From positions 28,604 to 92,603 of IMG/VR virus record IMGVR_UViG_3300033141_004852: a stretch of DNA of 64,000 nucleotides. One strand, written 5' to 3'. Numbering within the stretch: position 1 is the stretch's first letter; each line of letters opens with the position of its first letter. The notes under the pieces were generated by a model. The model was not told the DNA's origin and ran no database searches. It saw only the letters and a program-made list of their open reading frames with translations. Positions 21,601 to 63,910 of the stretch are shown here, one piece after another. Made by a program: the position numbers and the translations under genes. This DNA is from a virus.

Positions 21601-22097
21601 CTCATTCCCCCATCCTCCCCACTCGCGCCGCCTCCTCCACACGTACCAGCACCTTCCGCAACTCGGCAATTTCATCGCGGATAGCGCACAATCGCTCATA
21701 CAGCACCAACCCCCAGCTGATCACGGACCCGAGGATGCCCGTGCAAACCAGGAGAATAAGATACAGCATACGTTCCTCAAACATCGTCTTCACCATCCTC
21801 TCCATCCCCGCTACCTACCGCGGGAAGTCCCAGCACCTCCCCGAAGTCGGCCCCGCAATTCCAGCACCTATTCGCACCCGGGGGACAGAGACCCCCGCAG
21901 CCGCCGTCGCGGGGATTACAGAGCAGCCTCTCCCGCCACGAGTCCGCCCGAATATCCCCACTGGACTCCACCACCGTCCCCAAGTTTACCGGATGTACCA
22001 CCTTCTTCATACGGAAGCCGCCCTCCTCTACCTCCGGTGACAATCGAGGTAATAGATGTTGTTGGGCTCGATTTTCATCATAATTGTCAACGCTCAC
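18573..22097 (-). other. Cluster of ~12 small hypothetical phage ORFs, many Cys-rich
   Basis: Overlapping minus-strand ORFs including 18573-18935, 18844-19341, 19608-19976, 19859-20227, 20176-20367, 20360-20761, 20721-20936, 20933-21253, 21189-21605, 21602-21805 and 21777-22097. Confidence 0.45.
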
Positions 22098-22099
22098 CT

Positions 22100-23030
22100 C
22101 CTATATACACCCCCGCACCCGAAATTGTTTCATCGAGACGGTGAAACTACCCCCCGAGGATAGTATTCCCATGTAGTGGGGGGGGGGGGGGAGCGTGGGG
22201 AATCTACCACCTACTACAACAGGAGATCCGGGGGGAACCCGCTGTAAAAAGACTAAGTACCCTAGTACCGCCATTTTCGTCATATTTATACCAAATGGGA
22301 CCCGTTTCAGAGGAGGAGCTTATTTCATCGCCGGGGGGAACTCCCGGTTGAAAATGATAGTCCCGTGCAGTTGGTAGCAGATCCCGCAACCTACGGCGAT
22401 TTTCTATCACTGAAAAATGACTGAGGGGGGATTGTAGGCGAACTTGCGACAACAACTTACGTCGAGGGGGATCCTACGAGGGGATACCAATTTGGTGCCC
22501 ATTGTGAATCTCGAAGTACCTATCTCCCTGTTCCCATCACATTGGGGATAGTATGGGACCCATTCTAGAGGTCGAAATTAGGGAGGGAGAATACAATATA
22601 GATCAGGATGTGCACGCGGGGACAAGGAACAGACTGGGAAGATTACCTTGGCACTCTCATTTTCGTCATATCTAGATAGTATGGGACCCATGCTAAGATG
22701 TTGAAATTGGGGAGGGTGTGCGTAGGAGGTGTCGATAATTGGTATGAGAATAGCCCACCCCTTGCTACCTCGGCAGGCGGAAACATGGGGGTGTACTGCA
22801 TAGGCCGGAGGGATAACGGGCCTTATCAACCTGGCCGCGCGGCCGCATGATCCGCCGTTAGCGGCCGGGAAGAGGGGCATTTTCGCCAATTCGGACAGGG
22901 GCAGATTCGGGCATGCTGAACACGCCGAAACGGTCCGCCGAATGGCGCGGCACACCCGAAGGTGTCTCCCCCTCTCCCCCTCACCACTACCCCCTTGGTG
23001 ATCTTTTATCCCGGATCGCCACAATTCCCT
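22100..23030. other. Non-coding junction between the divergent arms, with direct repeats and a G14 run
   Basis: Lower GC and no convincing ORF; CATTTTCGTCATAT at 22272 and 22658; GATAGTATGGGACCCAT at 22547 and 22675; G14 at 22178-22191. Confidence 0.7.
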
Positions 23031-23031
23031 G

Positions 23032-23060
23032 TTGACAGTTACGGCGATATATGGTATATA
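23032..23060 (+). promoter_or_regulatory. Early promoter P1
   Basis: TTGACA-N17(ending TGG)-TATATA followed by an AGGAGGT RBS. Confidence 0.75.
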
Positions 23061-24113
23061 AGGATAGTAGATCAGGAGGTAGAGCACAACAATGACTACT
23101 AGCAAAGCGCAGGCAATCGTGAACTACTACCGCGAACACCCTCGGCATGGTATCCGGGTATGGTTAGAGGAGGCAGATGTAGACGGACTCTACGCCGCGA
23201 TCATTGTCGAATCCGATGCGCGTGATTGGCGCCGGTCTATTCGGCGACTAGCACGGCGCCACCACCTGCGGGTTGAATCCTGGTATCAACCCCTACACCA
23301 GGGGACGCTAGTCTAAACCGGGATAGGTGTCCCGGAATCACTCTATGGAGGTAGAGGAAGATGGTAGCAAGACACACCTATCATGTGGCGGTATCAATCC
23401 GCTATGCCCGCCAGGTGCTGGACAGCATGGAGCAGGAAGGACGCGAGGTGATTCCCCCGTGTGAGAATGTGGACCGGGCAGGCAGATGCCGCGGCCACCA
23501 AGTAAAGGAGGGAGAATAATGGTGGGCGACAACACAATCCACCTGCATACAATCAGATGCTACTGCGATCCCGGCCGCGTGTGGATTGTCGCCACACGCG
23601 GCACACAATCGCGAATTATAAACCCCTGGCCTGCTACACCGCAGGAGGCGGCCAGGCAGATACAACGCCTACGGGAGAAACTGGAGGCGGAGGGAACATG
23701 CATACAATCCAGGTGATATTACGGGATTGTACCACGCAAGAGGACCATGTAGCCCTGCCGGAGGCAGGTAGCCGCGATCTGCGGGAGATGCTGGAGAGCA
23801 AGGGGGACTATGTGCTACAGCGCCTGGCCGCGGCGTTGTCGCCCGTTGTAGCGGCAGAGGAGGCGGAGGCGCGGGCGCGCGCCGCGCGCACCCTCACTCC
23901 TGCCGAACAGGGGATACTACAACGGGCCATACGCGCCGAAGGTTGGACAGTAGAGGCGATCACGCATGAAGGGCGCGTGATGCTGAAGATCAAGAACCCT
24001 CCCGAATCCGCCACCTGGCGGGCCGATGCCTATAGGGTGGCCAGGGCATTCGGGCTTCGCGTCCTGGAGTTTCTCCCGGAAAGGAGCGCGATCCTGTCCC
24101 GTTGATATGCCGG

Positions 24114-24335
24114 GCGCGCGGGTGTCCCCGCGCGCTCTTCCCTCTCTGCCTCCGGGAGGGGACAGAGAGGGAAGAGGTAGCACCTTGACAACGGAATACG
24201 CGCCTCTACTCTACCTCCGGGAGGGGAGGGACTAGGATCACCAATCCCCTCCTCTCCTGCTAGGGAATTAGCGATCCTAGTCCCCTAGCAGGAGGGCGCG
24301 ACGCGCCCTCCCGAATCTAATCTACGGAGGTAGAG
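24114..24335 (+). promoter_or_regulatory. Structured intergenic element: tandem hairpins plus an RBS-sequestering leader
   Basis: 9-bp and 14-bp perfect stems, two crossing 12-bp stems, and CTCTACCTCCG (24209) complementary to CGGAGGTAGAG (24325). Confidence 0.6.
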
Positions 24336-24906
24336 GCAGATGGTAGCAGGACAGCAACAGATAGTGGGTATGGACGTCCCGGCCCGGAACCTGCTGGACT
24401 TGGACGCGGACGCCGTGCGCGAGGAACTGAATCGCGCGCAGATGGTGCTGGAGGACGGAAACATTATCCAATCCGTGTACCTCGGCCAATGTTGGGTGTT
24501 GTGTCCCGACGAGGCCGAACTGCGCGAACTGTTCCCTGCCAACGCCGACGCGACACGCGGTGAACTCGAAGATTATTGGTGGCAGGAGGCGGAGGCGTGG
24601 ATCACGGAGAACATGCCAGGAGTGTTCCTGCAGCAGGAGGCGGGAGAAACATACCTCCAGCAGGTGGCCCAGGAACTCCACGAATGCTTGCAGGTAGACG
24701 AATGCCAAGGAACCCTCTCCTATGGCGGCCGCGTGGTATACCGTCTACCAGATGCCGCGCGGGAACACGTGGAGTGTGTGTTTGATGCCCTCCTGCGCGC
24801 CGCGACCAGGTGGTGTAGACGCAAAGGGTTTTGGCCATGGGTTGTGTCCGTAAATCCCTCCGGCGAAGTGTTCACGCACATCCCGCCCGTCAACGCGTAG
24901 AGGATC

Positions 24907-25154
24907 GGGCCGGCAACCTTGCCGGCCCCTCCCGGAAGGTGATCGCCACCAATCACCTTCCGGGAGGGATAGAGTAGAGGTGTAGATTCACACATTCGCA
25001 GGTGATCCGCTGATCCTGCGAAGTGTCTAAATTGTCCTGCCCGCGCGCCTTGCCGCGAAGCAAGCAAGTGCTAGGTTGGTATGATCGCAGAAGCAGGCAA
25101 GCACCTGGCCCCCTGGACACCTGCGGCAGGAGGCCGGGGGAGGTCGCGGGCAGG
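24907..25154 (+). other. Intergenic multi-hairpin region
   Basis: 10-bp stem 24907-24928, 17-bp perfect stem 24927-24968, further stems to 25154. Confidence 0.6.
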
Positions 25155-25417
25155 GGAGGTAACAGGGAGGTAACAGCACCTCGCGTAACACAACAGGAGG
25201 CCAGGTAAATGGACTACGTAGATGGTGGTAACGGGAATATCATTGTAACGCACGCAGGGAAACCTGTAGCGGTGATCCTCTCCGAGGGTGAACACCTCTG
25301 TGAAAACTGCTACAGGCGGCCCGCGGAACATACCCTCTATATTCCCGATGAACCCGACGGCGAGAACAGGCCATTCTCCACAGGAAACACCAAAAGGGGG
25401 TGTAACACAATTCCCTG

Positions 25418-25446
25418 TTGACAATTCGGGGGAATTGTGGTATAGG
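25418..25446 (+). promoter_or_regulatory. Early promoter P2
   Basis: TTGACA-N17-TATAGG; shares CACAATTCCCTGTTGACA exactly with P1. Confidence 0.7.
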
Positions 25447-26378
25447 TAGAATACCAACAGGAGGTAGGACACTATGGCGAGGTTATACGCAAGGCTGAAT
25501 GCCGACGCAAGCAAGCACGAGGTAACCCGCCGCGGCCACCGCCGAATCACCGCCCGCCTAGAGACGTGGGGTGGGGCGGTGGAGGTAACGCTATGCGCAA
25601 ACGGTTCCTTCACTGTCACGAAGGGGCCGAAACATAACCCGCAGGAGGTGATCGCCGTCGGAAGCCTCCCCCTGGAGTAACACCCCCGGCCACCCTCCCC
25701 TCTCCCGGTCGCGCTGATCTACACGGCAGGGAGAGGGGATGGGAGAACACATAATAGGAGGCAGGACAGATGCCGCCGTCACCGTATGAACCCGCCCCGG
25801 TAACTATCGGGGAGAAGTGGGCGCACGGACGCCCCTGCCCGGCAACAGATAGGTTTTCGCGGGCGCTCCTGTATCTGCGACAATTAGACAAAGATGCCGC
25901 GGACCGCGTAGAACACCACGCCGCGGCGTATGTAACAGTGCTCCACCAAAACCCCGACGACGTACAGGCCGATGAGAGAGTGTGGGAATACCTGCAAGAG
26001 GTATATACGCTGATAGAAGAGCACGCAGAGGCCTATACGTACTTCGGCGCGTGTCGCGAGGGAGGCCCCGGTGTCGGGTGTTGGCCGGATTGGGATAGAG
26101 TACAGGACGCCCTCGCGAATGGTGATCTGCTAACCGCAGATACGGTCCTTGCAGAGGATTCTCACACTATCAATAGCCCGCGTGATCTGCGCGAAGGCGC
26201 GCTGATATTCGCGGGCGACGCCGCGCAAAACACGGGAACCCTCTGGCAGGTGGTGGAGGTCGCGGGCGACCGCGTAACCCTGCGGAGGTGTTGGGAAGAG
26301 TAACAGGAACCTCCCTCCTGCGACTAGTGATCTGGCCGCAGGAGGGAGGGGACAAACACAGAAGGGAGGTAGGTAACA

Positions 26379-26722
26379 ATGGTAACAGCGTATGAAAAGG
26401 CCGTAGAACGGGGCGGTGAAGGTCTCGAAGGCTACACCCCGGTATCGGGGCGAACTGCCCGACGTGTTGCCGCAGGTGGGGCGTGGACGCTGAGGACGCC
26501 GCCGCGGTCGCCAGGTTCAGCGACCGTATCAGTGGGGGGGAGGTAGAAGAGGATGGTGGGTTTTCCTGGGCCGCCTGTGATCTGTGCGGAAGCACGTTGG
26601 GCGGGGATAGATTCGCGGCCCACGGATTCACCCCGGAAGGCAAACTGATCCACCTGGATATATGCATGGACTGTTTGCAGTACCTCGCCAACGGAACAAT
26701 CCCGGAAGAGTGGGAGGGATAA
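26379..26722 (+). pseudogene. Frameshifted Cys-rich early gene, paralogue of 29526-30218
   Basis: The RBS and ATG at 26379 are out of frame with the downstream 'ANCPTC...CDLCG...HLDICMDC...ANG' region; shift near 26430-26440. Confidence 0.5.
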
Positions 26723-27488
26723 CACTATGGACAGGTTTGAGAAGTACGCCCCTTATCACCCTTGGGGGGACGTTGCGCGGTATGCCGCGCGGTTGTACCC
26801 CAATGCCCACGAGATGCAAGCGTGGACACAAGCCACCGCGGCCGCCTGCGGCCGCGCGTACTTGGAGAATCGTGCGCTCCTGCGGCTTTATGCGCGTGAT
26901 TTGGCGAAGAAGGCCGTCACCCTTCTCCGAGGCGAGGTGACTGTAACGGAGGTGATCCCCGACTACCTCCGGGACGCGCCGAATGCCCCGCGGACTATCC
27001 CGGAAGCACTGGCGATCCTCGCCCAAGAGTCTATTTGGGCAGCAGCAGGACTATAGACAATCAAGAAGAAGGAGGTAGGACACTATGCGCGTAACAATTG
27101 AGTGGGGCCACCCCGACGCGGGGCAGAACTACGTGGAGCGGATTCGCTTGTGTCCCGCGTATCGGGACTACGTGAAGGACCCGCGGGAGGTGGTGCTGGA
27201 GGCCGACGGCGGCGACCTCGGCATGATTCGCAACGGCGGGCGCGGGTGGGTTTGCGTCCTCTATCCCGACGGTAACTGCCCACACACAGAACCCCGTAAC
27301 GGAGAATGTGCGGCATGTAAACTGACCTGCGCAGTCCCCGTGTTCGCCCTGGACGGGACACCCGTAGACGGGGAGGCCGCGGAGGTATGTACCCCCCAGG
27401 AGGCCGCCGCACAAGCGGAGGCGGCAATCCGCGAGGTAGTAGACGAATGGATTATTGACCTCGTGGAGGCCGCAGAGGAATAACCCTG

Positions 27489-27517
27489 TTGACAATTCGG
27501 GAGAATCATGGTATATA
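27489..27517 (+). promoter_or_regulatory. Early promoter P3
   Basis: TTGACA-ATTCGGGAGAATCATGG-TATATA. Confidence 0.75.
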
Positions 27518-30214
27518 CTACCGGGAGGTAGGAAAAACAATGGCGAAACGCGTAACTGCCGGAAAGTGGTATCGCTACACCGCCGCGCACTTGATGGATC
27601 GGGTGATTCACCCGCCCGACAACCTGCAACCGGGCGACCTCGTGCAGGTCAAGAACCTGACCGGGTGTCCCCCCTGTAACACAATGGGCATGGCGCACGT
27701 GGTACACCCCGACGGCACCCTTGGAGGACTGGTATACACGGCAAGCCTAGAACCTGCCCGCGCCCCCCAGAAGGAGAATGCCGCATGACTACTACCCACC
27801 AGGTAACAGGTTGGACTTCTGAGGAATGGCAACAAGCAAGCGTGATCGGTTACGGGGATTACCGCAACAGTATTCCCGGAATCACGTATGCCTTGACCGC
27901 GAATGGGGATGTACTGGTAGCCCGAAACGCAGGTGCTGATCTGCGCCTCCGCTACAACGTTCCCCCGGCTACCCCGGACTTCGGCCCCGCGGAGAGGGCG
28001 GCACTCGCTCGCCGTCGCCTGCGCGCCGACGGCTGGCCCCTGCGAGGGAGGTAACAATGAGAATGAGAACACCTCCCCACCAAGTGACAACGGAACCCGT
28101 GGACTGCACCTGCGCGAAGTGCGGTGGCCCCGCGGTTATCTACCCCGTCCCGCGACCGCGGGGAACCTGTATCTGCAAACGGTGTTCCCCACCGTGGGCC
28201 GCCGACTTCGTAAACTTTCTCCTGCAACAGGAGCAAGAAGGGGGCAAGTAACATGCGAATGATCTTCGCCCTCCAATACGCCGAGGGCTACCCGACGGCA
28301 TACCACGTTCCCGCGGAACGGTGGCAGGAGGCGTCCCGCCATACTCGCTACCCCGACGCGCTGATAGCGCAGAGGAAGCACAACCTGCGAACCGGGGGTA
28401 AATGTGTCTACCGCGTAGTGCCCCTCCGGGATACCTTCGCGACGTTTACCTTCCTCTGCCAGGGGGCGCGGGCAACGGACTATCGCTGCCCACACAACGC
28501 TCACGAGCGTGTAACAGTCCCCTGGCCCGCGGGGACACCGTACCCCCTACGTCCAACCCTACCAAGGTGGGCCGCCAGCAACCTCTGCATGGCATGCGCC
28601 AACGCGGCAGAGGTCGCCGACACACACAAGAAAGGTGAGGAAGAACATGCTCTTGACCGCAGAACTTTGGTATGAATCTCACCGCGGGAGTGGGCGCGTG
28701 ATCTGCCGATCTGCCGCAGAATTGAAGCGCGCCCTAGCACGAACCCGCCCGGACTATGCTAGCCTCACCGTCGCCCGGAGGGGTGCACCTGCCACCTCGT
28801 GGGATTCTGCCCACAATGCAAGGCAGAACTACACGCTGATCTGCGGGGGGGTGTATGATCTACCGCCCGCCAATTATGACGGGGATTTTTGATCTACTAC
28901 AGGAGGTAGGACCCTATGCTAGAGGAAGAGTGCAAGATTCGCACCACGTTTGAACTGTGCCGCCGGGGTGTAACAGTCACAGATGCCCTGCGCTTGTTCC
29001 GCACGGCACGGAGGCTACGCCGCCTCTGCCTGCACTATGCCGAACGCCCACTCACGCCCGGCGAACTCAGAAGACTAGTGGAGGCGAAGGCCGTCCTAGA
29101 AGCAGCGGACGGCGTGAGCACGCAGCGCGACCCGCGCTACACCGTCGCCTATCTAACGGTGGAGGGCGCAACGGGAGAGGAAGTCAAACTCCCCCTAGAC
29201 TGCTGATCTGTGAGGAAGGCTACCATGCCCACAGCGAATGATAGCGACGTAGCACTCACCCCGACGGTGCAAGTGGGGCCGGGGGGAATCACTTGGCGGG
29301 AGGCGTTAGCACAAGCACCGCCCGGAGGGCATTATCGGGCGATTCCCTATCCACAGGTTCCGGGCCTGCTTGTACAAGTAATCGTGGGGGCACGCGTGGT
29401 ATTCTCCGGGATGGTAGTATGCCGCCGCTCCCGATCTGATCTGGCGCGGTGGACGCGTGAGGTGAGGAAACTCCACGGATGGATTGTTCTGCCAAGTCAA
29501 ACACCGTAACAGGAGGTAGGAGAGAATGACACTAGGACTATACCAATACCTGCGCGACCTTGCCCCGAAAACCCGAACCTACGCGGGTAACGGGAACAAC
29601 AAGGTCGTACCGGGAGCGGCACCAAACTGTCCGACCTGCCTGCGCCTCTACGGACTGACCAGCCCACAAGCCTTCGCTGATCTGCTAGAGGTAGAGGGTG
29701 AGCCGGACCCCTTCACAGGTGGGGACCCCTGCGATCTCTGCGGGGCACCGCCGGGCCTGCGTGTAACAGCGCACGCTGAGGACCGCGAAACAGGAAGGCT
29801 AGTACACCTCGTGATCTGTGCCGACTGTGCCGCCTACTTCGCTAACGGCACCCCTCCGACCGACGTTGACCTCACGTTTGAGCGGTGTTGGACAGCGCCC
29901 ATAAACCCCGATGCCTGGGGCGTATGGTGGGAGGGCAAACGCTTTCCCGACGGGCGCGGAATCCTCTTCGTGGAGGTCGCCCGTAGTCCAGCACCACCCG
30001 ACCCGGCACTCGTGCAGGACGTGCTGAATAACGCGGGTGGCGATCCCGTGGAGAAAGTCCGGCATGGCGACGCCTGGATTCTGAAAACTTGGCATGACTC
30101 CCCGGAGCGAAAAGCGCTAATCGCTGCCCGCGTGATCCGACGCTGGCGACAAGGGTGGCGCCGCGGAGTGAATAGCATGTATAAGCACCACCCCGAATTA
30201 GCGACAATCACTAC

Positions 30215-30243
30215 TTGACAATTCGGGCGAAACATGGTATGCT
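30215..30243 (+). promoter_or_regulatory. Early promoter P4
   Basis: TTGACA-ATTCGGGCGAAACATGG-TATGCT. Confidence 0.8.
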
Positions 30244-30782
30244 GAGTAACAGGAGGTAGGAAAACATGTACTTGATCTTACAAGAGGAAAACGTCGGCGG
30301 GTGCGTTGTCCGTTTCGGCACAGATTGTCACGGAATGTATGAACTCACTATGCACCTGTCCAACGAATCCCCGCCTAACGCACCTTCGTTAGCGAACTTG
30401 ATAGAGAGGTGGGGCCTGTGTCCCCTCACTTCTGACACCCCCGAAGAAAACGCGACACGAATCCCCGTAGCCCCACGAGTCAGCGCGCAGGAGGTACTGT
30501 CCCGAATCCCGGAGGCACAAACACTCGCGGACCGGATGCCGGGGGGTAGTAGTATTATACTGTTGCTCGGCAAACAGCGATATGACGTAGTCCCCACCGT
30601 CCAATTCGCTCTCCCAAACTGGGCCGACCGCTATGCCGCGGTGGAGGTAGCATTCTGTGATGACTCCACCCGCGAATACGACCCCGAACTACGTCTAGGG
30701 CTACTCCAAACGCGCTGCGCAGAGTGCGGCCTAGTCCTTGACGACTGATCCAAAACACCATTAGGAGGCAGGAGGCGTAACA

Positions 30783-31412
30783 ATGCAAGAAGTGTCAGAG
30801 GTATTGGAGTTTGCGGACGGTGCAACGCTAAGAATCATGCCGGACCCCAACCCTCCGAATCCCCGCGAATCGGATAACTTGGGGAAGATGATATGCTGGC
30901 ATTCACGGTACAACCTCGGCGACCGCCACGACTTCGCGACCCCGCAGGACTTTCACGAGTGGGAGGCAAGCCCGGCCGGAGAGGGTGCGGAGGTTCTACC
31001 CCTCTACCTGCTAGACCACAGCGGTATCACCATGAGCACCAAACCCTTCTCCTGCCGGTGGGATAGCGGCTGCGTCGGATTCATCTCCGTAACAAAGACC
31101 CGGATTCTCCAAGAGTACGGAGAAGATACCAAAGAGGTACGCGCTCGCGTCCGCGAGGTACTACGGAACGAGGTGGCCACTTATGACAAGTGGCTCCGGG
31201 GGGACACTTGGGGGTACGCCCTATTCGGGCCTCCGGTCACCTGCGACAAGTGCGGACACACGGAGACCCCGCTCCTGGACTCTTGCTATGGGTTCTTCGG
31301 ATCGGACCACGAAGCGTCCGGCATGTTCGACAACCTCCCCGATCCCTACGGCAAGTGGGCAAAAGAAGGTAACTACACTGAGAAAGAGGACCGGACCCCA
31401 TGCAGAGTATAA
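30783..31412 (+). CDS. Conserved-looking phage/mobile-element hypothetical protein
   Basis: 'PPNPRESDNLG', 'PLYLLDHSG', 'WDSGCVG' and 'DSCYGFFG' recall a family common in phage early regions; function unknown. Confidence 0.55.
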   Translation: MQEVSEVLEFADGATLRIMPDPNPPNPRESDNLGKMICWHSRYNLGDRHDFATPQDFHEWEASPAGEGAEVLPLYLLDHSGITMSTKPFSCRWDSGCVGFISVTKTRILQEYGEDTKEVRARVREVLRNEVATYDKWLRGDTWGYALFGPPVTCDKCGHTETPLLDSCYGFFGSDHEASGMFDNLPDPYGKWAKEGNYTEKEDRTPCRV

Positions 31413-31656
31413 CCGCCATGATCTGCCGATTCGTGGACGTTGTCACAGACTGCATGGACGCGGCGACGCCCTACGTACCCTACGCTGGAGCGGCGATCCT
31501 CACGTACATAGCCTGGCGTATGTACGTTGGGATAGAGCACACTCTCGGACCCATACCCTAGCCGATCCCCCGCCCACCCCTGGGGGAATCGGTAGCGAAG
31601 GGAGGCGGAGACAATGTAATACTGATCCCCGATAATCGCGTGCTAATAGGTTGAAC

Positions 31657-31886
31657 GGGGAGGGTTCCCCCGGTCGGGGGGACTCTCCCCCAAGGAAGCG
31701 GGAGCACCGTATCCTTGGGGGAGGGGCTAGAGAAACCTTGACAACCTGGCAGGGTGAGTAACTTGTCCCCACGGGGGCACGGGAGGCATTCCTACCTCCG
31801 GGGACACCCTCGCGGTGCGGGGGTGTCCCTCCCTCCCGTGACGGTCCACGGGGATCGCCACGGGAGGGCAAACTACTAGGAGGTAG
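31657..31886 (+). promoter_or_regulatory. Structured intergenic element: tandem hairpins plus an RBS-sequestering leader
   Basis: Two stems, then ACCTTGACAAC, then CTACCTCC (31792) complementary to the RBS GGAGGTAG (31879), enclosing two hairpins. Confidence 0.6.
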
Positions 31887-32277
31887 TATCATGTACCGAG
31901 TGACGTTGGAGTCCGAAGAATATGGGGTAGAGGAGTTTCGCTACCCCACGCTAAGGGATGCGCGGGAAGCAGTAGCCCGCCTCAGTGAGGAATGTGTAAA
32001 TGCTCACAAGCGGGACGGGGTAGAACGTAGGATTGTCCTGCATATCCCCGCACGAAGTGCCGACCCCGCCGCCGCCAAAGAGGAGGCGGAATCATGCTGA
32101 AGTGCCTTCGCCGCCACCTTCTGTATCTGGAGTGGTGGTGCTACAAGACTGCCGCCGACGCCTTCGTGGCGCTGGCGCGGAGCGCGGGGGACGCGCTCCT
32201 GCAAATCCACGGATACCCGGCTGAGGAAGACGCTATCCACCGGGCCGCGACTCCCCCACACGCCCGCCCGAAGTAAC

Positions 32278-32306
32278 TTGACACCGCGGGCGAAACATGG
32301 TAACAT
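32278..32306 (+). promoter_or_regulatory. Early promoter P5
   Basis: TTGACA-CCGCGGGCGAAACATGG-TAACAT. Confidence 0.7.
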
Positions 32307-34634
32307 GCGCGAGGTAACAAACAGGAGGTAGCACAGAATGTATACCGCCGAAGACTTGAGTATCATCGCCGTTGGCTTCCGCCCCGAAGACCGGGACTTC
32401 ACGGTTGACGACTCCCGGTACTGGGTATGCACCACCATGCTCACGACCGAGCAAGAGCACCGCTACGGACTTCCCCTGTACCCACAGACCCCCACTTGGT
32501 GGCCGCTCGACTACGGTAGCGCCACCCCCACACCAGAGGAGAGGGCGGCAAAGCACTTGGGGGACGTGATCCTCAACAACCTCTCCACAGTCCTGCTTGT
32601 CCATGATCGGGAACAAGACGCGTACGGTATCTGCTACCGCGAAGAGAGGACGGCTCCAGAAGAGGTGATCGCCGCCTATCTGATCTGCGGACTCCTGCCA
32701 CCAGTCTCCCTCGTGGAGCACTTCAGTACCCGCCTCGACCCCCGCGGGAACCTCCCGACCTCCACTTATCAAGCGGTACTGGAGGCGTGTCACCTCACCA
32801 CGCGGGAGGCACGGCGAGGCGATACCGCGCAGAAGGTCGCCAACCTCTGGACCGGGTGGGTTCCGCCCTCGGAGATTGGCGGGGCTATAGAGCGGTGGAC
32901 AGAAACACTCCCCGTCGGCCCGCTCCAGGAACGGTTGGGGTTCTGGATTGATCTGAAAGACAGTCCCGACACAGACGAAGAGACGGGGGAGCCGCTCCTA
33001 CGACTGGCCGTCTGCACCGAAGCCGGGAACGTCCTCACCAGCACGGGGACGGGCGTCCCCGCCACCGCGACACCGGAAGAGCGCGCACAGGCGCTCGCCA
33101 ACGCCGCCGCAGCCGTCCACCGCGCCTTCGAGAAGGCTGCCGAGAAGATTGTCGCCCGCCTCTCCGGGAACGACTTCCGAGAGGGAGTGCCCGATGCCTA
33201 GACCGCACCAGGGAGCACGGTATACTTGGCCGAAGAAAGATGAGGAGTACCGCCTCTACCGACTACACCTGCGCGAAGACGGCGAATCCTGGACTGAGTA
33301 CATGCTCGTGTTGCAAGGGGATGATCACAAGGATACCAGAGGCCGCCCGGATGCCCTGGTTTGTGGTGTCCGCGGTGACCCCAACAGCCTCTACTTCGGC
33401 TCCGTAGACGTACAACACATACTAGGTTCATGCTCGCACAAGCGGGTAACATGGGATGAACTTCCCCCCGAATGGCAGGACGCCTATCTACGCTGGGGGG
33501 TAGACGCTTCAGCACGGGGCCTCCACCTCACCACGGAGCCGGATACTCCCGTCCACAAGGTCGCTGATCTGCTTTGGAGAATCCGACGCCTGGCGGTGGA
33601 CTGCGACCCCGCGGAAGAAGACCCACTGGCGGTGATCAATAACTTAGCGAAGGAAGCCCTCGCTACGCTACAGTCTGTCTCTACCTCCTAGCGACCCCCC
33701 GGTCGCGCCCGGTCTCTGGGCCGGGCCGTGCTCACCCCCACAGCGGGTACGGCCGGGCCTGGAGAAACCCAGGTAACACATACAGGAGGTAGCGAAGATG
33801 ACGTGTAGTATCTGCGAACGTACAGCGCCACTCACTCCATGCAAACTCTGCGACAGGATGATCTGCCACCAATGCTCCGTTCGCGTTGGGGAGCACACCT
33901 ACTGCGGACCCTGCCTTGTGCGGGAGCAACCGCCGTTCAATCCCCAGCGCGGACACGTCCCCCAAGTGGACCAGCGAGTAGTGGTAACGGACCCACCCGC
34001 TGATCTTCGACACCGCGCCCAGCAGGTCGGCGCCGTCCAGGCGATCACGTGGGAGTGGGAACCGGACGAGAATCTCGAAAACAAAGGGTACTGGGATGCC
34101 ATAACGGGGGTAGTTTTCCGCGATGGTAAGGTCGAAACAATCCCCTGCCGCTCCCTCACCCCGATCCACCAAGCACTTCGGGTAGTCCGCCGACTCGTCT
34201 GCCCGAAGGAGGCAACACACTTGCCGGATACGTACAATGACGACGTGTATATCGTCAATCCGCCGATCGGGGCAGGCAAGGACGGCGACTTGATCTACCA
34301 CGAGGTTGGCGTCTTACTGCAGGCAGACGGGACCTGCACGAATCGCTGGGCGGACGGCACCGTCGGCGTCCCCTCCAAACTGGCGGAATTGGTGGAGGAA
34401 CTCGCCGCCGATATTGACGGCGCAAACTGCGCCCACTGCGGGGAGATCGCCGAATGGCGCGACGTGGATGTGCCACTATGAAACAGGGAGCCTGCACGAT
34501 CTGCCACTCTTTCCCCGTTCCTACCCGCACCTGCCCCGGCTGCGGCAGGATAGTGGGGCAGGAATGCTTCGCCGACGCGGAGCGATGCCGACTCTGTGAC
34601 GAATGCTCAGAGCACCAAGAGGAGGTAACAAACA

Positions 34635-35819
34635 ATGGCGAAACCCGCCCTGGACTGCACCGTAACCTACGCTGATCTGAACAACGGCGCCGCCGTATCG
34701 CGCGTGATCGGTCGCGGTCGCTACGCCCTGCCGATCTGTGAAAATGTGGCGATCCGAACAGAAGGGCAGAAAATCCGGTGTTGGGCGTACCCCGCCGGAC
34801 CCGCTGCTGCTTGGGACTTCAACGCGCGGGTAGCAGTCAGTGGGGGAATCACCGTCCCCGCCCGGACCCTCAAACGCGTGCTCAAAGCACTGAAAACGAA
34901 GGCGCGGGAACCCCTGCGGCTCCAAGCACCGGACCCCTCTCACTTGACTATCACCGCGGGTAACACCCAAGTCAGCCTCCAGGGGCTCCCGATAGAAGAA
35001 TACCCGCCCCTCCCCCACATCAAAGACCCCTCCACCTACCAAGTCACGGTGGGGATTCTCCGTGAGGCATCCACCCGCCTACTCCCCCTCGCCAAAGCGG
35101 CGGTGGAGGAGAAGTGGCAGGGGATTCACGTCATCCCCACCGACACAGACGCCGTGGGCTTCTGGGCCACAGACAGATTCCGAGTAACGCACATACCACT
35201 CACCCCCACCGCGCAGACGGGGATGCAGCATATTCTAATCCCTACCGAGGCCCTAGAACACTTCCTCGCCCTCAGCCGCCGACTCGACGGCGAGGAACCC
35301 GCATACATCCACGCAGGACAGAGTGCAGAGAGAGACGATCCCGCACCGCGGGTAACACTCACCTGTGGCCCCCTAACTGTTACTGCAGGCTCCTTCACCC
35401 CCAAAGATCCCGGCTTCGCAGCCTGGACGGGGAAGCAGGTGCTGAAACCGCCATATGCCGTAGACCGAGAAGAACTCGCTGACGCTATCAGTACCCTTGC
35501 CGGAATCGCCCAGGATGTGGAGGGGAAGCGCGTCGAACTCCACTTCAACCCCCCGAACCTACGCCTAGGGACAGGAAACGGCGAAACAGGGCGCGCGGAG
35601 GTAACTATCCCCCTGAAGAACATCCCCAACGCTGAAACCAACCCCGAAACTTGTCGCCATGATATACATCATGGCTTTCTCCACGACGCCGTCGCATCCG
35701 TCGGCGGGAATATCGTCGCCATTTACCCGCCCGGAGACAAGTGGGGACCTCTTCTGATCCAATCAGTAGAGGACTCACTTCCTATGCAAGTATGGATTCA
35801 GCCGCTCAATCCAGAATAG
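34635..35819 (+). CDS. dnaN: DNA polymerase III beta sliding clamp-like protein
   Basis: 394 aa; 'ALPICENV', 'GGITVPARTL', 'EEYPPLP', 'ATDRFR', 'VDREEL' and 'QPL' follow the beta-clamp pattern. Confidence 0.75.
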   Translation: MAKPALDCTVTYADLNNGAAVSRVIGRGRYALPICENVAIRTEGQKIRCWAYPAGPAAAWDFNARVAVSGGITVPARTLKRVLKALKTKAREPLRLQAPDPSHLTITAGNTQVSLQGLPIEEYPPLPHIKDPSTYQVTVGILREASTRLLPLAKAAVEEKWQGIHVIPTDTDAVGFWATDRFRVTHIPLTPTAQTGMQHILIPTEALEHFLALSRRLDGEEPAYIHAGQSAERDDPAPRVTLTCGPLTVTAGSFTPKDPGFAAWTGKQVLKPPYAVDREELADAISTLAGIAQDVEGKRVELHFNPPNLRLGTGNGETGRAEVTIPLKNIPNAETNPETCRHDIHHGFLHDAVASVGGNIVAIYPPGDKWGPLLIQSVEDSLPMQVWIQPLNPE

Positions 35820-35830
35820 GAGGCACACCA

Positions 35831-36016
35831 ATGCTGGTCACGGAAGTCATGGTCTGTGCTATCTGCGGAGCACAAACAGACGGGCAGGGACCAACCTGCC
35901 CACACTGTAACCGCAACGTCTGCCCTAACTGCTTCGCTATCCCACCGGGCACCGAAGACGAAGATGATCCCGGCGTTTGCCGCGACTGCTTCCGCGGCTC
36001 CACGCAGAATAAGTAA
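35831..36016 (+). CDS. Small Cys-rich zinc-finger protein
   Basis: CAIC, CPHC, CPNC and CRDC motifs. Confidence 0.55.
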   Translation: MLVTEVMVCAICGAQTDGQGPTCPHCNRNVCPNCFAIPPGTEDEDDPGVCRDCFRGSTQNK

Positions 36017-36177
36017 CAAAACACACCACAAGATGTATATAAAGAGTGAGAGTCCGGGTTACCAAGGTGCTACCTCCAATGGATCATCCCGGACAAGTGA
36101 GGCCGGCTCTCGGTTTTCACCACGAGGCCCTTCGATCATAACCGGAGCCGGCCCCTCTCACTAGAGAGGGTAAGCCC

Positions 36178-36705
36178 ATGAAGACAGAGATACGCCGCAT
36201 TCACAGTAGTCACATCGCTGACTACGCCGCCTTCCTGGCGATCTGCCTACGCGACAGGGTATTCGTAGGCAGAACCTGCCTCCGCACTCTCCTGCCAATG
36301 CAAGTGCAGACACTCCTGAGTCACCTCTTCTCCGCAGACGCCCAATACTACCTCGTCTTGACCGGACGGGCACGCGGGCGCTACCCTACAGCATTCCTCA
36401 TCCTAGACCCCCAGCCGTGGGATACCGTGCAAATCTACTACTTCTCCCACCCGCGGCGGCGCCGCCAAACATTCTGGAGCGACCTCTGGCCACAGGTAAC
36501 AGCGGCCGCCGTCGAAATGGGCGCCTTCCGCCTGGAGATCGAAGTCAGTAGTGCCCACGAGAGTTTCCTGGAGGCGCTGAAAGCACGCCAATCGGAGACG
36601 GGCCTCCGCCTGGAGGGAATCCGACGCCTTGCCGTCCTCGATGCAGACGGTAACCGTCGCGACCTCTACCTCTTCGGGAAAGTCCTCGGAGATCACGGAG
36701 GGTAA
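36178..36705 (+). CDS. GNAT (RimJ/RimL-like) acetyltransferase-fold protein
   Basis: C-terminal 'GLRLEGIRR...DGNRRDLYLFG'. Confidence 0.55.
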   Translation: MKTEIRRIHSSHIADYAAFLAICLRDRVFVGRTCLRTLLPMQVQTLLSHLFSADAQYYLVLTGRARGRYPTAFLILDPQPWDTVQIYYFSHPRRRRQTFWSDLWPQVTAAAVEMGAFRLEIEVSSAHESFLEALKARQSETGLRLEGIRRLAVLDADGNRRDLYLFGKVLGDHGG

Positions 36706-36709
36706 CAAC

Positions 36710-37741
36710 ATGTACCCCGAACTCGACCAACTCCTCCTACCGGAGTTTCAAGCGTACATCCGCGCACTCAAAGGGCACCGGAGCCCACAAACTGTGCGGA
36801 TATACCGGAGCCGCCTGCGGTGGCTCTCCCGCAAACTACAGGAGCGGGGGCTGAAGCCGTTGGAGGTAACGGAGGCAGACCTCACGAGACTCCGGGAGGA
36901 TACCTTCGACGAGATCACCCCCTCCATGTGGAATCAAACACTCCACGCGGTAACGCGCTTCTATGAAGAGGCCGTCCGCCGGGGGGAGATCGCCCAATCT
37001 CCACTCATTCCCCGCCTATTCCGGCAAGAAACCCCCAAACCACCCAGGGAGCCTCTGACACAGGAGGTCCTCGATGGGATACTCGCCGCCGCGCGGAAGG
37101 AGGGGATGCCCTGGCCTCTGGTGATCCAGGTCATGGCATTCGCCGGCCTCCGCCGCGACGAAGTATGCCGCCTGCGGCGCCAGCACCTTCTCATCAGTCA
37201 ATATCGGGAAGACCACGAGGACCCAAGCACCGCCTATAGTCTGTGGGTGCTCGGTAAGGGTAACAAAGGCCGCTCGGTGGCAATCCACCGCAGTCTCTAC
37301 GAGGCTATAGAGGCATATCTAGCATGGCGGACACACGAGATGGACGATCACGATGAGCACATGTTCGTCTACTATCACCCCGGCTCGTGGCGAGCAACGG
37401 GGAAACCGCGCCACCCCCGCTCGAAAGCGGAGCCGCACCCCCTGACTGGCGACCTGATCTGGAGACGCGTGCGGGAGTTTGCCCGCGACACCGCGAACCC
37501 GCGGGTAACGCCCCATGATCTCCGTGCCCACTTCGCCACGCGGGCACTCATGCGCGGTGTACCCCCTAGCCTAGTGAAATTGTGGATGGGGCATAGCCAC
37601 GAGCGCACCACGATGGGCTACTTCCGCCCCGCCGGGGATACCATCGCCGCCATTCCCGGCATCATCCTGGCGGATGTAGACCTAGAAAGGTTGGAGAGAG
37701 AATGCAGAGAACTCCTGACTCCTCGCACACACCACGAGTAG
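36710..37741 (+). CDS. Tyrosine recombinase (XerC/D-like)
   Basis: Catalytic R (GLRRDE), K (GKGNK), HxxR (HDLR), H (MGHS) and Y (TTMGY). Confidence 0.9.
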   Translation: MYPELDQLLLPEFQAYIRALKGHRSPQTVRIYRSRLRWLSRKLQERGLKPLEVTEADLTRLREDTFDEITPSMWNQTLHAVTRFYEEAVRRGEIAQSPLIPRLFRQETPKPPREPLTQEVLDGILAAARKEGMPWPLVIQVMAFAGLRRDEVCRLRRQHLLISQYREDHEDPSTAYSLWVLGKGNKGRSVAIHRSLYEAIEAYLAWRTHEMDDHDEHMFVYYHPGSWRATGKPRHPRSKAEPHPLTGDLIWRRVREFARDTANPRVTPHDLRAHFATRALMRGVPPSLVKLWMGHSHERTTMGYFRPAGDTIAAIPGIILADVDLERLERECRELLTPRTHHE

Positions 37742-38409
37742 GAATCTACGGAATCCCCTACACACGCAATCCCTATCCCGGGAAGTTTGTCGTGGTGGAG
37801 GGGCCCGACCGCGTGGGGAAGAGCACCCTTGTCACCCGCCTAGCCGCGGCCCTCGAAGAAGAAACCAGCGAACCTTGGCACACACTCGCCGCAACCGACG
37901 GAATCGGAACCGTCCCCGGTTTGCTAGAACTGCGAGAGTTCCTGCTCCACAGTGGAGAGTGTCTCCGGCAACCCGTCCTCTTCGAGTACGTCACATCTGC
38001 TGCCTGTTGCCTAACACAAACAGAATTACTACTCCCAAAATTGGCTATGGGGATCAACGTCCTCATGGATCGGTGGTTTCCCTCCGCCTTCGTCTACGGT
38101 CAGCAGCAGGGGCTAGACCTGAGTTTCCTGATCGCCCTCAAGCAGCCCCTGCTTGTCCCCGACACCCTCCTCATCATCAGCCGCGACCGCTGCCTACCCC
38201 GACGAGGTAACAAGCAAGACGCGTGGGATGCCAACGAGCAACAGCACGCGATCCGGCGCCTCTATGAGTGGCTCCTGGGATGGTGGAGGGAGAACGTCCC
38301 CACCTGCCCGGCGGGGATGCTGAAACTCAGCGTGAAAGACAACCGAGAAGTCTCCTACCACCGCGCCCGCCGCCGTCTTTACGATCTCTGGGGAGGGAAA
38401 CCACGGTGA
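37702..38409 (+). CDS. tmk: Thymidylate/dNMP kinase
   Basis: 'VVEGPDRVGKST', 'MDRWFPS' and 'PD'. Confidence 0.85.
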   Translation: MQRTPDSSHTPRVGIYGIPYTRNPYPGKFVVVEGPDRVGKSTLVTRLAAALEEETSEPWHTLAATDGIGTVPGLLELREFLLHSGECLRQPVLFEYVTSAACCLTQTELLLPKLAMGINVLMDRWFPSAFVYGQQQGLDLSFLIALKQPLLVPDTLLIISRDRCLPRRGNKQDAWDANEQQHAIRRLYEWLLGWWRENVPTCPAGMLKLSVKDNREVSYHRARRRLYDLWGGKPR

Positions 38410-39995
38410 ATACCGTGCGAATCATCGCCGGGCCCGTGCGCGGCGCCATTCAAGGGTATCAGCACCTCCCTCCCGACGTGAAAGCAGCACTCTCCGCCCG
38501 GACACAATTCGAGATCGAGGGAGCCTGGTACGTCCACGCGGCGAAGGCGGCGAAAGCCGCCGCTGAGGGCCAAGACCCCGACACCGTATGGGATGGGCGA
38601 ATAAGACTCCTGACCAACAGTGGAACCTACCCTGCAGGACTGACGGCAATCCTCGTAGAGGAACTCCAACGCCTGGGTTACTACGTGGAGGTCGTTCAAC
38701 CTCGAACTGCACCACCCCCAACGGTAACAGGGGGGCAGCCGCAGATGACCCTCTACCCGATCCAGGAAGCGGCAGTAATCGCCCTACTCCAGGAGCGAGT
38801 TCCCCCGCGGGGTATTCTCCACGCAGCCCCCCGCTCGGGGAAGACCCTCATGGCGGCGGAGATCGCCCGACGCCTAGGGCAGGAGCGCACCCTCTTCCTC
38901 TGCGAACGCTTGGATATAGCCCGCCAGGCCGTGGAGAAGTTTCGCGCCTACCTCCCCGAACACTGGACCATCGGCCACGCCTACGATGGCGAGTTTGAGC
39001 CGGGTAACATCGTCATCGCGACGGTGCAGACACTCTGCCACGTCCTCGGGATCGTCTCGTCCTCTAAACGCAAGAAGGGGGATGTAATAGAACAACCCCT
39101 CCCCGACTCCCAGCGAGCAGTAATGGCGGACTTCGCCCACAAGGCGACGGTTATTCTCGTCGACGAATGTCACCACGCCGCCGCTGAGAGTTACCGCGCG
39201 GTACTCAAGCGCTGCACCAACGCATACTGGGTCTACGGGTTGTCGGGGAGTCCCTGGCGAGATGACGGAGCCGATCTGTGGATGATCGGCGCCATCGGGC
39301 CGATCCTCTACACAATCGGCCGCAAGCAGATGATCGACGCGGGGCTCCTCGTCCCCTGCCACATCTACCTCGTGACCTTGCCGAAAAAGCGGTTCCCTAG
39401 TAAGTGGAACTACGCTCAGAGGAGGGCGGAGTACGTCATCCGCAACCCCGTCCGAAACGCCGCCATCGCCGAGTGGACAAAGTACCACGTCGAAGCCGGG
39501 CACTCGGTGATGATCCTCGTCGACTACATCACACACGCGCGCGTGCTCCACAACGCCCTCGACCAATATGGGGTGCCACACGCGGTGATGACCGCCTCCT
39601 GCCAATTCGCGAAGGAGGGCGACCAACGCCCCCAAGTGTGGCAGGACCTCCAGGACAAGAAGGTGCCGTGCCTTATCACCACCCTCGCCAACGAGGGTAT
39701 AGATGTCCCCAGCCTCGACTGTGTGGTAATCGCCGGGGGTGGAGAGAGTACGGTGCAGGCGGTACAACGCCTGCGTTGTATGACCGCCTACCCGGGGAAG
39801 CAGTGTGGGTACGTGTTGGACTTCAACGATCAGGCACGCTACTTCTCCACGCACGCGCTGGAGCGCCTACGCACCTACCAATCGGAAGATCCGGGGGTTT
39901 TCGAGATCCACCACGTTACCTCGTTCGCCGACCTTACGGAGGACGAGGCCGAAAGGAGACTAGCCGATGCTACGAGCGCATCTGACGATCAGTGA
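38406..39995 (+). CDS. Superfamily 2 helicase (UvsW/Rad25-like)
   Basis: 'APRSGKT', 'DECHH', 'GLSGSP' and 'EGIDVP'; GTG start overlaps the tmk stop. Confidence 0.9.
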   Translation: MNTVRIIAGPVRGAIQGYQHLPPDVKAALSARTQFEIEGAWYVHAAKAAKAAAEGQDPDTVWDGRIRLLTNSGTYPAGLTAILVEELQRLGYYVEVVQPRTAPPPTVTGGQPQMTLYPIQEAAVIALLQERVPPRGILHAAPRSGKTLMAAEIARRLGQERTLFLCERLDIARQAVEKFRAYLPEHWTIGHAYDGEFEPGNIVIATVQTLCHVLGIVSSSKRKKGDVIEQPLPDSQRAVMADFAHKATVILVDECHHAAAESYRAVLKRCTNAYWVYGLSGSPWRDDGADLWMIGAIGPILYTIGRKQMIDAGLLVPCHIYLVTLPKKRFPSKWNYAQRRAEYVIRNPVRNAAIAEWTKYHVEAGHSVMILVDYITHARVLHNALDQYGVPHAVMTASCQFAKEGDQRPQVWQDLQDKKVPCLITTLANEGIDVPSLDCVVIAGGGESTVQAVQRLRCMTAYPGKQCGYVLDFNDQARYFSTHALERLRTYQSEDPGVFEIHHVTSFADLTEDEAERRLADATSASDDQ

Positions 39996-40805
39996 ATGTG
40001 AAGAAGTGTGGGCCCCCATCCCCCAGAGGAGCACGCGCGCCGACGCGCTAGCCAACCCCACCACCTGGATACCCGCCGATGAAGGGGAGCATCAAGGTCT
40101 GAAACGAGAACACTGCTACATCGCCTACCGCGTGGTTGTGCGCGTGATTGTGGGGACCACCGTCTACGAGTGGGAATACGTCGTCTCCGATCTCCACGAA
40201 CTCGCCCGACTCCTCGGGCGTCTCGACCACCCAGCACACCGCACATACCAACGCCGGGCTCATACCGGACCGCCCCAGGCAACGAGCGCCAGCACACTCC
40301 CACCTCCTATCCCAGGACCCACCACACCCCAGCGGAAGGAGCCCGTCTAATGCCCGTCCACCCAACACGACGCCGACCACGAAGCCGCCACCTCGGAGGC
40401 TTTTGGCGCCAAGCATACTCCTGGCGGTGGGATGCCCCACACCCCGTACCGAAGAAGGAACAGCGGTGGTATATCACCGCCCACGCGGCACTGAAAGTCC
40501 TCCGCGAGCAAGAGGGTATAGACACCACCTGGCTGAGGAACTTCATCACCTGGTACTTCACCTGGTGGACGTTCCACGGCAAGGTAGATGCCGCCTCCAT
40601 GCGCCTCTACAGCGAACACCCGCGGACACTCCTCGCCCGCAGCCAGGACGGCACCTACTTCATCCTCGAAGCCTACAAGGCGTGGACTCAGCAGTACGCG
40701 CACATGCTCGCGCAGGCGTCGATCCCCGAGATCGCCCAGCAGTACCGGACGGTTCCGCACACGACTCACCACCCCGGACCGTGGGAGACAGAAGATGTTG
40801 ACTGA
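39967..40805 (+). other. Two hypothetical ORFs (39967-40350, 40350-40805)
   Basis: Translationally coupled ORFs in the replication operon; the second could be the initiator. Confidence 0.45.
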
Positions 40806-43346: not shown

Positions 43347-43544
43347 TGGATGTCAGTGTCAGTCGTCTACACTCAGCGGTCATCGGCTTCACCGACCGCG
43401 AGCGCACGCAGTTGATCCACGCCCTGGATCAGTTGCTTGCCAACGGTGACGTCCCCCTCCGGTGGGAGGGGTTGACCGCCGACGACATCGAGTGCCTAGG
43501 ACGCTTGCGGACCGCACTCGCGGAAGCGGGAGGTTAGCACCCAG

Positions 43545-46478: not shown

Positions 46479-46499
46479 GCGAGAGCAGGGGCGACCGCT

Positions 46500-49735: not shown

Positions 49736-49740
49736 AGACA

Positions 49741-50796: not shown

Positions 50797-50880
50797 CACG
50801 GACTCCCTCGTGGGGTGGAGGCAGCAAGCGGTTCCGGTCGCCCCCCGCACTGCCTCCACCCCCGTTGAAAGGGGTACTCT

Positions 50881-55555: not shown

Positions 55556-55567
55556 AGGAGAGAATCA

Positions 55568-59035: not shown

Positions 59036-59036
59036 G

Positions 59037-62471: not shown

Positions 62472-62476
62472 GGTTA

Positions 62477-63844: not shown

Positions 63845-63870
63845 TTCATCCATCGCAGCCTCCATACAGG

Positions 63871-63910
63871 GAAGAGAACCCCCTCCTATATCCAGGAGGG
63901 GGTTCTCATA
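63871..63910 (+). terminator. Intergenic hairpin (terminator or processing site)
   Basis: GAGAACCCCCTCCT-loop-AGGAGGGGGTTCTC, a 14-bp stem with no clear U-tract. Confidence 0.45.

Follow-up and report, generated by a model that had tools for sequence, protein, structure and literature searches.

A dense one-strand GTAAC array in the early regions of two distantly related phages, possibly a Chi-like polar signal

The window analysed here comprises 64,000 nucleotides (bases 28604-92603) of the 92,603-bp phage contig IMGVR_UViG_3300033141_004852 from IMG/VR (G000 below), and its early rightward region carries a dense array of the pentamer GTAAC (25159-37510, + strand). On this strand, 55 copies of GTAAC are present against 3 of GTTAC, which amounts to about one site per 225 bp with the consensus G-GTAAC-A/G, and the array extends over some 24 small early genes and the genes for a beta clamp and a tyrosine recombinase. 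The same array is found in a distant relative, which indicates that the word is a selected signal, and the evidence supports its being polar and independent of the reading frame. A Chi-like polar DNA signal, lying beside the end that enters the cell first, is the reading ranked first, because the anatomy of the array is the same as that of published phage Chi arrays; it is proposed tentatively and held with somewhat less than even confidence.

For 25159-37510, 9.7 copies of GTAAC are expected from base composition and 10.6 from a first-order Markov model, and 500 dinucleotide-preserving shuffles gave a mean of 10.5 (sd 3.0) with a maximum of 20. The original prediction, which had been made from the letters of the window, had put the counts at about 55 against about 3 with roughly 8-10 expected, and exact counting bears this out. 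Its figures for the remainder of the window were likewise close: about 1 GTAAC against about 13 GTTAC in 1-22 kb, 0 against about 15 in 46-64 kb and a mixture in 38-46 kb compare with exact + strand counts of 1 vs 14 (1-22000), 0 vs 15 (46001-64000) and 9 vs 8 (38001-46000). Genome-wide, the ratio of GTAAC to GTTAC in G000 is 72:52. Among all 5-mers, GTAAC is the most strand-skewed in the array region. The codon-shuffled control that the prediction had proposed was also run, with synonymous codons permuted within the region in such a way that both the proteins and the already inflated GTA usage of the region were kept; the excess stands, the coding sequence of the array containing 35 copies against 14.2 expected (z 7.1, rank 2 of 1024), and TGATC is the only pentamer that ranks higher. 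The word is specific, in that its one-letter variants ATAAC, CTAAC, GTAAG, GTAAT and GTAAA are at or under expectation. Some information is added by the flanks, G being present at -1 in 29 of the 55 sites and A at +6 in 32; between -45 and +49 around the sites, no conservation was found besides these two positions (and +7 in the relative).

It had further been predicted that the sites are written into codons, stop codons and spacers alike, and this was confirmed for 24-47 kb, where 30 sites are read as GTA-ACN, 14 as NGT-AAC and 20 are intergenic, seven of the latter being G-TAA-C stops. Val-Thr pairs are written GTA-ACN in 24 of 35 cases in the array and in none of 26 cases in 46.5-64 kb, and the frequency of such pairs is doubled in the array relative to other regions. 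The share of GTA among Val codons is 32% in the array and 14-21% elsewhere. The accompanying claim that GTA is an unfavoured Val codon has to be dropped, as a codon with this share outside the array is not rare.

Only one relative was found in the searched collections, namely IMGVR_UViG_3300031669_000016 (G001, 75 kb; 75,174 bp); together with G002, another contig of this phage that is 99.99% identical to it across 40.9 kb, it forms a composite of 90.9 kb. The relative is syntenic with G000 and its proteins are 30-50% identical to those of G000, with almost no early gene in common. When it is oriented with the helicase on the + strand, the counts of GTAAC and GTTAC are 34:5 at 4-10 kb (early ORFans), 15:6 at 10-21 kb (recombinase to DnaB) and 6:23 over the PolA-to-enzyme block, so that the array consists of the same word on the same strand in the same syntenic place as in G000. 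The flanks also match (35 of 50 sites have G at -1, and +6 is A or G), and an excess over codon-preserving shuffles was again obtained (12 vs 6.1 and 13 vs 5.3). Seven genes are common to both phages; they carry 12 sites in G000 and 10 in the relative, and no site of one phage aligns with a site of the other. The individual sites have thus turned over, which indicates that selection acts on density and orientation and not on positions. In each phage the array sets in abruptly, 2-4 kb along the rightward arm and past a first set of small genes, and a single GTAAC copy is present in the first 4 kb of the relative. Both also open with a tandem cluster, which in G000 consists of five copies in 91 bp (25159-25249, +), three of them in the leader of the gene at 25209-25421, and in the relative of six copies in 135 bp with 27-bp repeats.

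As a control, 158 unrelated phage and metagenome loci with a similar helicase were taken from IMG/VR and metagenomes by helicase-profile matching (≤31% identity); the difference between GTAAC and GTTAC was at most 11 in any 6 kb of these loci, with medians of 4 and 2.5. No closer relatives were detected by clamp searches or by megablast against phage records, tblastn with PolA gave identities of at most 27%, and two scans of bacterial genomes (185,579 species genomes) revealed no prophage relatives. A literature search for GTAAC in phages returned primer sequences only.

The relative is informative in another respect, since a tyrosine-recombinase (integrase) gene (Pfam E 3e-20; locus L013, 5248-6396) is encoded on the opposite strand within its dense array. 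This minus-strand gene contains six + strand copies of GTAAC against 1.7-1.9 expected (P 0.001-0.0075); read in its own sense, it has six GTTAC and no GTAAC. The orientation of the array is therefore unchanged across an oppositely coded gene, from which it follows that the word is not a signal for the translation of local genes. These data favour an orientation that follows the DNA strand, or else a rightward read-through transcript, and not the local gene. The integrase gene is adjoined by an attP-like fragment (L013, ~5065-5114), about 46 nt of which resemble the 3' part of tRNA-Arg(UCU), with the T-arm and CCA end; no whole tRNA was detected at this fragment by ARAGORN. Judging from its sequence, the fragment is likely the attP core and the relative is probably a temperate phage. 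No tRNA-Arg-like attP fragment was found within the G000 window.

The position of the word with respect to the Shine-Dalgarno site and the start codon differs between the two phages. In G000 it mostly stands just upstream of AGGAGGTAGG, whereas the relative has it between GGGAGG and ATG, the arrangement GGGAGG-GTAACA-N-ATG following an anti-Shine-Dalgarno hairpin at no fewer than six genes. It was also observed that the early region of the relative (about positions 5120-6050 of the reverse complement of L013) has a repeated ribosome-binding-site cassette, CCCTCCGGGGYCTGGTGGGAGGGTAACA, followed by the start codon at at least four genes; the Shine-Dalgarno site of this cassette is able to pair with an upstream CCCTCC.

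The gene calls in both phages are our own heuristic open reading frame (ORF) calls. The two ends of the G000 contig overlap, and its G+C content is about 60%. A leftward and a rightward arm diverge from a 930-bp non-coding junction (22164-23091), which is presumed to be a physical end or a regulatory hub. The leftward arm carries the structural genes on 1-30 kb of the genome and small genes on 1-22 kb of the window (1-22010, -); the rightward arm spans 23.1-63.8 kb of the window. The first rightward genes (23092-24900, +) are five small ORFs with zero GTAAC, and the array begins only beyond them. It is preceded by a non-coding leader (24901-25158, +), in which sequence inspection indicated two strong hairpins right after the stop of the gene at 24340-24900 and, downstream of these, a putative extended -10-like element, TGGTATGAT (~25076-25085, +); the leader matched no Rfam family. 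About 24 genes in 25.2-34.6 kb are ORFans with respect to Pfam and PHROG, and Pfam matches identified the beta clamp at 34635-35819 and the tyrosine recombinase at 36629-37741. Further along the arm, matches were obtained for a deoxynucleoside monophosphate (dNMP) kinase, an SNF2-type helicase, DnaB, an N6/N4 methylase, a fusion of uracil-DNA glycosylase (UDG) and PolA, RecA, a DnaG-type primase and SbcCD. The dNMP kinase, SNF2-type helicase, loader-like, DnaB and methylase genes are covered by a sparse tier of the array (38207-45895, +), with 9 GTAAC and 8 GTTAC, 9 copies of GTAAC against 4.9 expected in coding sequence, and the last copy at 45891. The later rightward genes (46500-63844, +), comprising UDG-PolA, RecA, primase, SbcCD and glycosyltransferases, contain no GTAAC (8.0 expected) and 15 GTTAC. 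The start of the PolA gene (46500-49124) is the ATG at 46500 and not a later GTG, and the additional N-terminus carries the family-4 UDG motif GEAPG, so that the product is a UDG-exonuclease-PolA fusion of 874 amino acids. A terminator at the right border of the array was considered and ruled out; none is present there, because PolA starts at 46500.

Outside 25-46 kb, + strand GTAAC is depleted everywhere in G000, regardless of the coding strand, the copies numbering 0 in 46.5-64 kb (8.0 expected), 1 among the leftward small genes (10.4 expected) and 7 among the structural genes (15.8 expected). Expressed in the mRNA sense, the coding sequence of the leftward small genes has 1 GTTAC against 10.4 expected and 11 GTAAC against 7.1. 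For the structural genes, the depletion belongs to a general deficit of NTTAC. The cumulative GTAAC-GTTAC skew of the genome has its minimum at 23038 and its maximum at 39004-45891, so that the flips near 23-25 kb and 41-46 kb described in the original prediction are statistically real in G000. They are not general, as the minus-coded arms of the relative have 36 GTAAC against 11 GTTAC on the + strand, a polarity opposite to that in G000 (36:11 vs 8:27), and four alternating polarity domains are present in the relative in addition to its reversed minus arm. Low counts of mRNA-sense GTAAC were found in the structural genes (7 vs 16.8 expected), the left arm (3 vs 6.5) and the genes at 20.9-41.8 kb (5 vs 8.3) of the relative. 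Since the outside polarity rule is not common to the two phages, only the array is treated as a conserved feature; the outside polarity is real in G000 and unexplained.

The prediction had also raised the possibility of a general compositional skew, and here the outcome was divided: GTAAC is the most skewed pentamer, but depletions of similar size occur in others. One example is GGGTC in the mRNA sense, of which the array has 0 copies where 10.4 are expected, the leftward arms have 23 (42 expected) and 11 (22 expected), and 38-46 kb has 3 (8.9 expected); the depletion is seen in G000 genes on both strands except in 46.5-64 kb, the complement GACCC is at expectation, and the relative does not share it. 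A second one-strand word, TGATCTG(C/T), was noted at 25000-34700 of the window, where TGATCT occurs 26:2 and GATCTG 23:0 on the two strands. TGATC is present there in 33 copies against 11.4 in codon-preserving shuffles (z 7.7), in two reading frames and between genes; neither enrichment nor conservation of TGATCTG was found in the relative.

The junction is also the common starting point of three domains that are poor in restriction sites. AGCT is missing from 22317 to 44394 and CCCGGG from 21877 to 37777, and TCGA occurs only four times in 22732-32507, where about 45 sites would be expected from its density in the rest of the genome (~4-5 per kb). The domains are nested, all of them starting at 22-23 kb and running rightward for different lengths, which suggests an arm that is exposed early to host restriction, that is, one that enters first. 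Their beginning at the junction fits a first-entering end located there. The classic case of early-exposed, site-free DNA is the first-step-transfer DNA of T5, which is free of EcoRI sites. In the same region of the relative, only two-fold deficits of GATC and TCGA were found. Site avoidance in G001 is strong and genome-wide, with an avoided set that differs from that of G000: TTAA is absent from the whole 75,174-bp contig (loci L010-L013) and CCCGGG from the 21.6 kb examined. Methylase targets could bear on such avoidance patterns; G000 has two N6/N4 DNA methylase genes, one per arm (14476-15204, -; 44071-45222, +), and the relative a single fused methylase of 864 amino acids. In the relative, two independent assemblies are each interrupted at the junction. 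The junction of G000 also contains a run of 14 G (22178-22191) and three + strand copies of the 9-mer ATGGGACCC (22295, 22553 and 22681), of which 0.8 are expected in the whole window; one copy is present in the junction of the relative (L013, 14889-14897). This 9-mer is a candidate operator, cos-binding or origin site.

According to the Chi-like reading, GTAAC would be read on the other strand as 5'-GTTAC-3', with a fuller form of approximately TGTTACC, and selection would maintain both the high density and the uniform orientation of this signal along the rightward early arm. It would most likely be read by a helicase-nuclease of the RecBCD/AddAB type, tracking DNA from an end. The arm adjoining the 22-23 kb junction would be the last to be packaged and the first to enter the cell, and would be the free end at packaging. 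A nuclease loading at this end would move rightward, reading the strand whose 3' end lies there, and would meet the tandem cluster and then one site per ~225 bp. It may thereby be attenuated or switched to recombination, and the replication genes beyond would be spared. Such arrays have been described in the lambdoid phages LLS and MD8, in which Chi sites in one orientation (20:3 and 32:0) are clustered near the free right end, nearly all of them oriented so as to be active for RecBCD entering at that end, and phage Chi arrays have been linked to the absence of anti-RecBCD genes (PMC12315714). Three elements of this account are inferences, namely the action of the reader on DNA, the presence of an end at the junction and the identity of the reader as a host helicase-nuclease. 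Of the original prediction, which had proposed the same geometry, the selected, polar and frame-independent signal has stood, with its orientation kept through the opposite integrase gene of the relative, and the flips have not proved general.

Several observations weigh against this reading. Known Chi sequences are G-rich, whereas GTTAC is AT-rich, and we know of no host Chi that resembles it. The array starts 2-4 kb inside the presumed end and leaves the first genes uncovered. The Chi model explains neither the depletion of + strand GTAAC elsewhere in G000 (0 vs 8.0; 1 vs 10.4) nor the low mRNA-sense GTAAC of the late genes of the relative (7 vs 16.8). Many copies adjoin ribosome-binding sites, a location equally natural for an RNA signal. 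Finally, G000 encodes its own RecA, SbcCD and helicases, and the phages with published arrays are without an anti-RecBCD gene and, in most cases, also without a recombination module (PMC12315714).

The main rival to the Chi-like reading, modelled on the endoribonuclease RegB of T4, places the signal in RNA. GUAAC in the sense RNA of early and delayed-early operons would be recognized by a nuclease or regulator specific for this sequence, which would bind or cut it and so set message lifetime or translation, and later genes would avoid the word; we consider this possible, though rather unlikely. In both phages the array is on the sense strand of early operons, and its density tiers track the likely temporal classes, being dense in early ORFans, sparse in replication-initiation genes and empty from PolA on. 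The low mRNA-sense counts in later genes (0 vs 8.0 in G000; 7 vs 16.8, 5 vs 8.3 and 3 vs 6.5 in the relative) would also be accounted for, as would the copies that adjoin Shine-Dalgarno sites and stops, among them the GGGAGG-GTAACA-N-ATG cassettes, and an AU-rich pentamer is a typical target of RNases and RNA-binding proteins. The antisense word in the integrase gene of the relative, however, would demand 1.15 kb of rightward untranslated read-through, and the leftward genes of G000 do not avoid sense GUAAC (11 vs 14.3; 11 vs 7.1) but avoid GUUAC. The predicted accessibility of GUAAC is not above that of composition-matched pentamers (0.156 vs 0.181; 0.129 vs 0.199), although the test is weak; the distribution over genes is no more regular than random, and, as described above, the position relative to the Shine-Dalgarno site and ATG is not the same in the two phages. 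Nor was a nuclease-like or RNA-binding protein found among the early proteins with Pfam and PHROG, the larger of which had no match of known function in either, although a nuclease may well lack such a match. Only two early ORFans are common to both phages. One of them (25770-26303; L013, 12657-13115 in the relative) belongs to a family of phage proteins of ~150 amino acids with a conserved FGAxEGDGxxxGxWPD motif. Among 1.8 billion representatives it has 26 weak homologues, and comparisons with Pfam, PDB sequences and known folds gave no match (AlphaFold2 model with a mean confidence score, pLDDT, of 71); the other (33194-33691) was submitted to an Atlas search only, which gave nothing usable.

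A role in replication appears improbable. Here 5'-GTTAC-3' would mark where the phage DnaG-type primase starts on the template, or would be recognized by another part of the replisome, and would be enriched on the lagging-strand template of a leftward fork from a putative origin near 41-46 kb. A DnaG/Toprim primase, DnaB and a clamp are encoded and conserved in the relative, primases read words of 3-5 bases on one strand, and the whole-genome polarity of G000 agrees with forks departing from 42-46 kb in both directions and converging at 23-25 kb. This would imply 50 kb of head-on replication and transcription in G000, the minus-coded arm of the relative has the opposite polarity, and both the five-fold excess in one 12-kb zone only and the depletion on the leading-strand template would be left unaccounted for. 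The convergence of 5'-GTTAC-3' on 23-25 kb from both sides (16:1 and 55:3), with the wrong orientation counter-selected, is also what would be expected of a guide resembling FtsK-orienting polar sequences (KOPS) or architecture-imparting sequences (AIMS), by which a DNA translocase would be steered to a resolution site at the junction together with an Xer-like tyrosine recombinase, for which the gene at 36629-37741 is available. We regard this as very unlikely, given that the relative does not preserve the polarity beyond the array, no gene resembling FtsK was noticed, the guides known so far have eight bases and the high density is confined to one side. Equally little credence is given to the word having no function of its own, in which case it would be a by-product of copied ribosome-binding-site or promoter cassettes, of GTSAC avoidance in Val-Thr pairs or of a local mutation bias; this has already been largely refuted by the shuffles, the variant counts, the flanks and the antisense integrase gene. 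The repeated cassettes do include the word, GTGAC is depleted in the array (4 vs 16.3) and the sense strand is A-rich, but the cassettes account for at most ~6-10 copies per phage, the flanks are not conserved past seven bases and GTSAC is no rarer in the array than elsewhere. Moreover, GTTAC would avoid GTSAC equally well, yet it is depleted; the Val-Thr pairs themselves are doubled, and the word is kept in non-homologous genes of the relative and inside the antisense gene. Several narrower candidates were rejected. Avoidance of Tsp45I/MaeIII sites (GTSAC/GTNAC) as a cause was set aside as GTSAC is not regionally depleted, and avoidance of Type III or Type ISP restriction in view of the five-fold enrichment in the array and the presence of both orientations genome-wide (72:52). 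A promoter for a phage or alternative-sigma RNA polymerase was discarded, as no second or downstream element accompanies the 55 copies in 12 kb, which lie mostly inside codons; sigma-70-like sites numbered only eight, and a -35 element for an extracytoplasmic function (ECF) sigma factor was dismissed as no CGTC-like element is found ~17 bases downstream. The stoperator-like site offered as an alternative in the original prediction fails because nothing is conserved beyond ~7 bases.

It is also conceivable, if doubtful, that the pentamer serves this lineage as a temporal or identity mark of an undescribed kind, kept by density selection across fully turned-over genes; it could be an RNA tag by which a nuclease or regulator retires early messages, or a mark of "self" on first-entering DNA that is read by a tracking enzyme, of the phage or of its host, other than RecBCD/AddAB. 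Short polar words are the means by which tracking enzymes tell direction and "self" on DNA and RNA, and few are known outside model bacteria. A five-base word kept at 4-6 copies per kb in two phages with almost nothing in common in their early genes offers a clean and testable case. If the Chi-like reading is true, the array would reveal the Chi of a GC-rich host, would extend the strategy of end-clustered Chi arrays to a different type of phage, and would bear on escape from nuclease attack and possibly on the capture of CRISPR spacers, which in E. coli draws on RecBCD products. If the word is instead read in RNA, a new sequence-specific regulator of early gene shut-off would be involved. The restriction-site-free domains, for their part, predict which end enters the cell first.

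When compared with known systems, the array of G000 is most like those of LLS and MD8, in that a short, asymmetric, over-represented word is clustered on one strand in one part of the genome, in coding and non-coding sequence alike. The LLS and MD8 arrays lie beside a DNA end, whereas in G000 an end at the junction is only presumed; their words are the known 8-base, G-rich Chi sequences of their hosts, are present at ~0.5-1 per kb and have been tested genetically, whereas the word of G000 has 5-7 bases, is AT-rich, occurs at 4-6 per kb and accompanies the phage's own RecA and SbcCD. The endoribonuclease RegB of T4 cuts GGAG in early mRNAs, and this system likewise involves a short word on early messages that is often located at ribosome-binding sites and avoided later, an arrangement that would give temporal control; the later avoidance holds for the + strand genes of G000 and for the relative, but not for the leftward genes of G000. 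GGAG is part of the Shine-Dalgarno site in T4 and is not densely written into codons; no RegB-like gene was found in G000, and in the relative the word runs antisense through one gene. KOPS and the architecture-imparting polar octamers of bacterial chromosomes are 8-base words that FtsK reads over megabases. A polar word converging on a terminus with the wrong orientation counter-selected is seen in G000 as well, but this is true of G000 alone, as the relative does not have the flips in common with it, and only one side is dense. The stoperators of cluster A mycobacteriophages are 13-14-bp repressor sites, ~20-35 of which are present per genome in both arms; they resemble the array in being numerous, asymmetric, in one orientation relative to transcription and near gene boundaries, and differ from it in that G000 specifies only 5-7 bases and has two thirds of its sites inside codons. 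Finally, the EcoP15I sites of T7 are strand-biased, and in this bias, as in the EcoRI-free DNA of T5, defence and polar DNA entry determine how short sites are oriented or whether they occur at all. Only avoidance patterns are found in those phages, whereas GTAAC is five-fold enriched here; the domains of G000 that are free or nearly free of AGCT, TCGA and CCCGGG resemble the T5 case.

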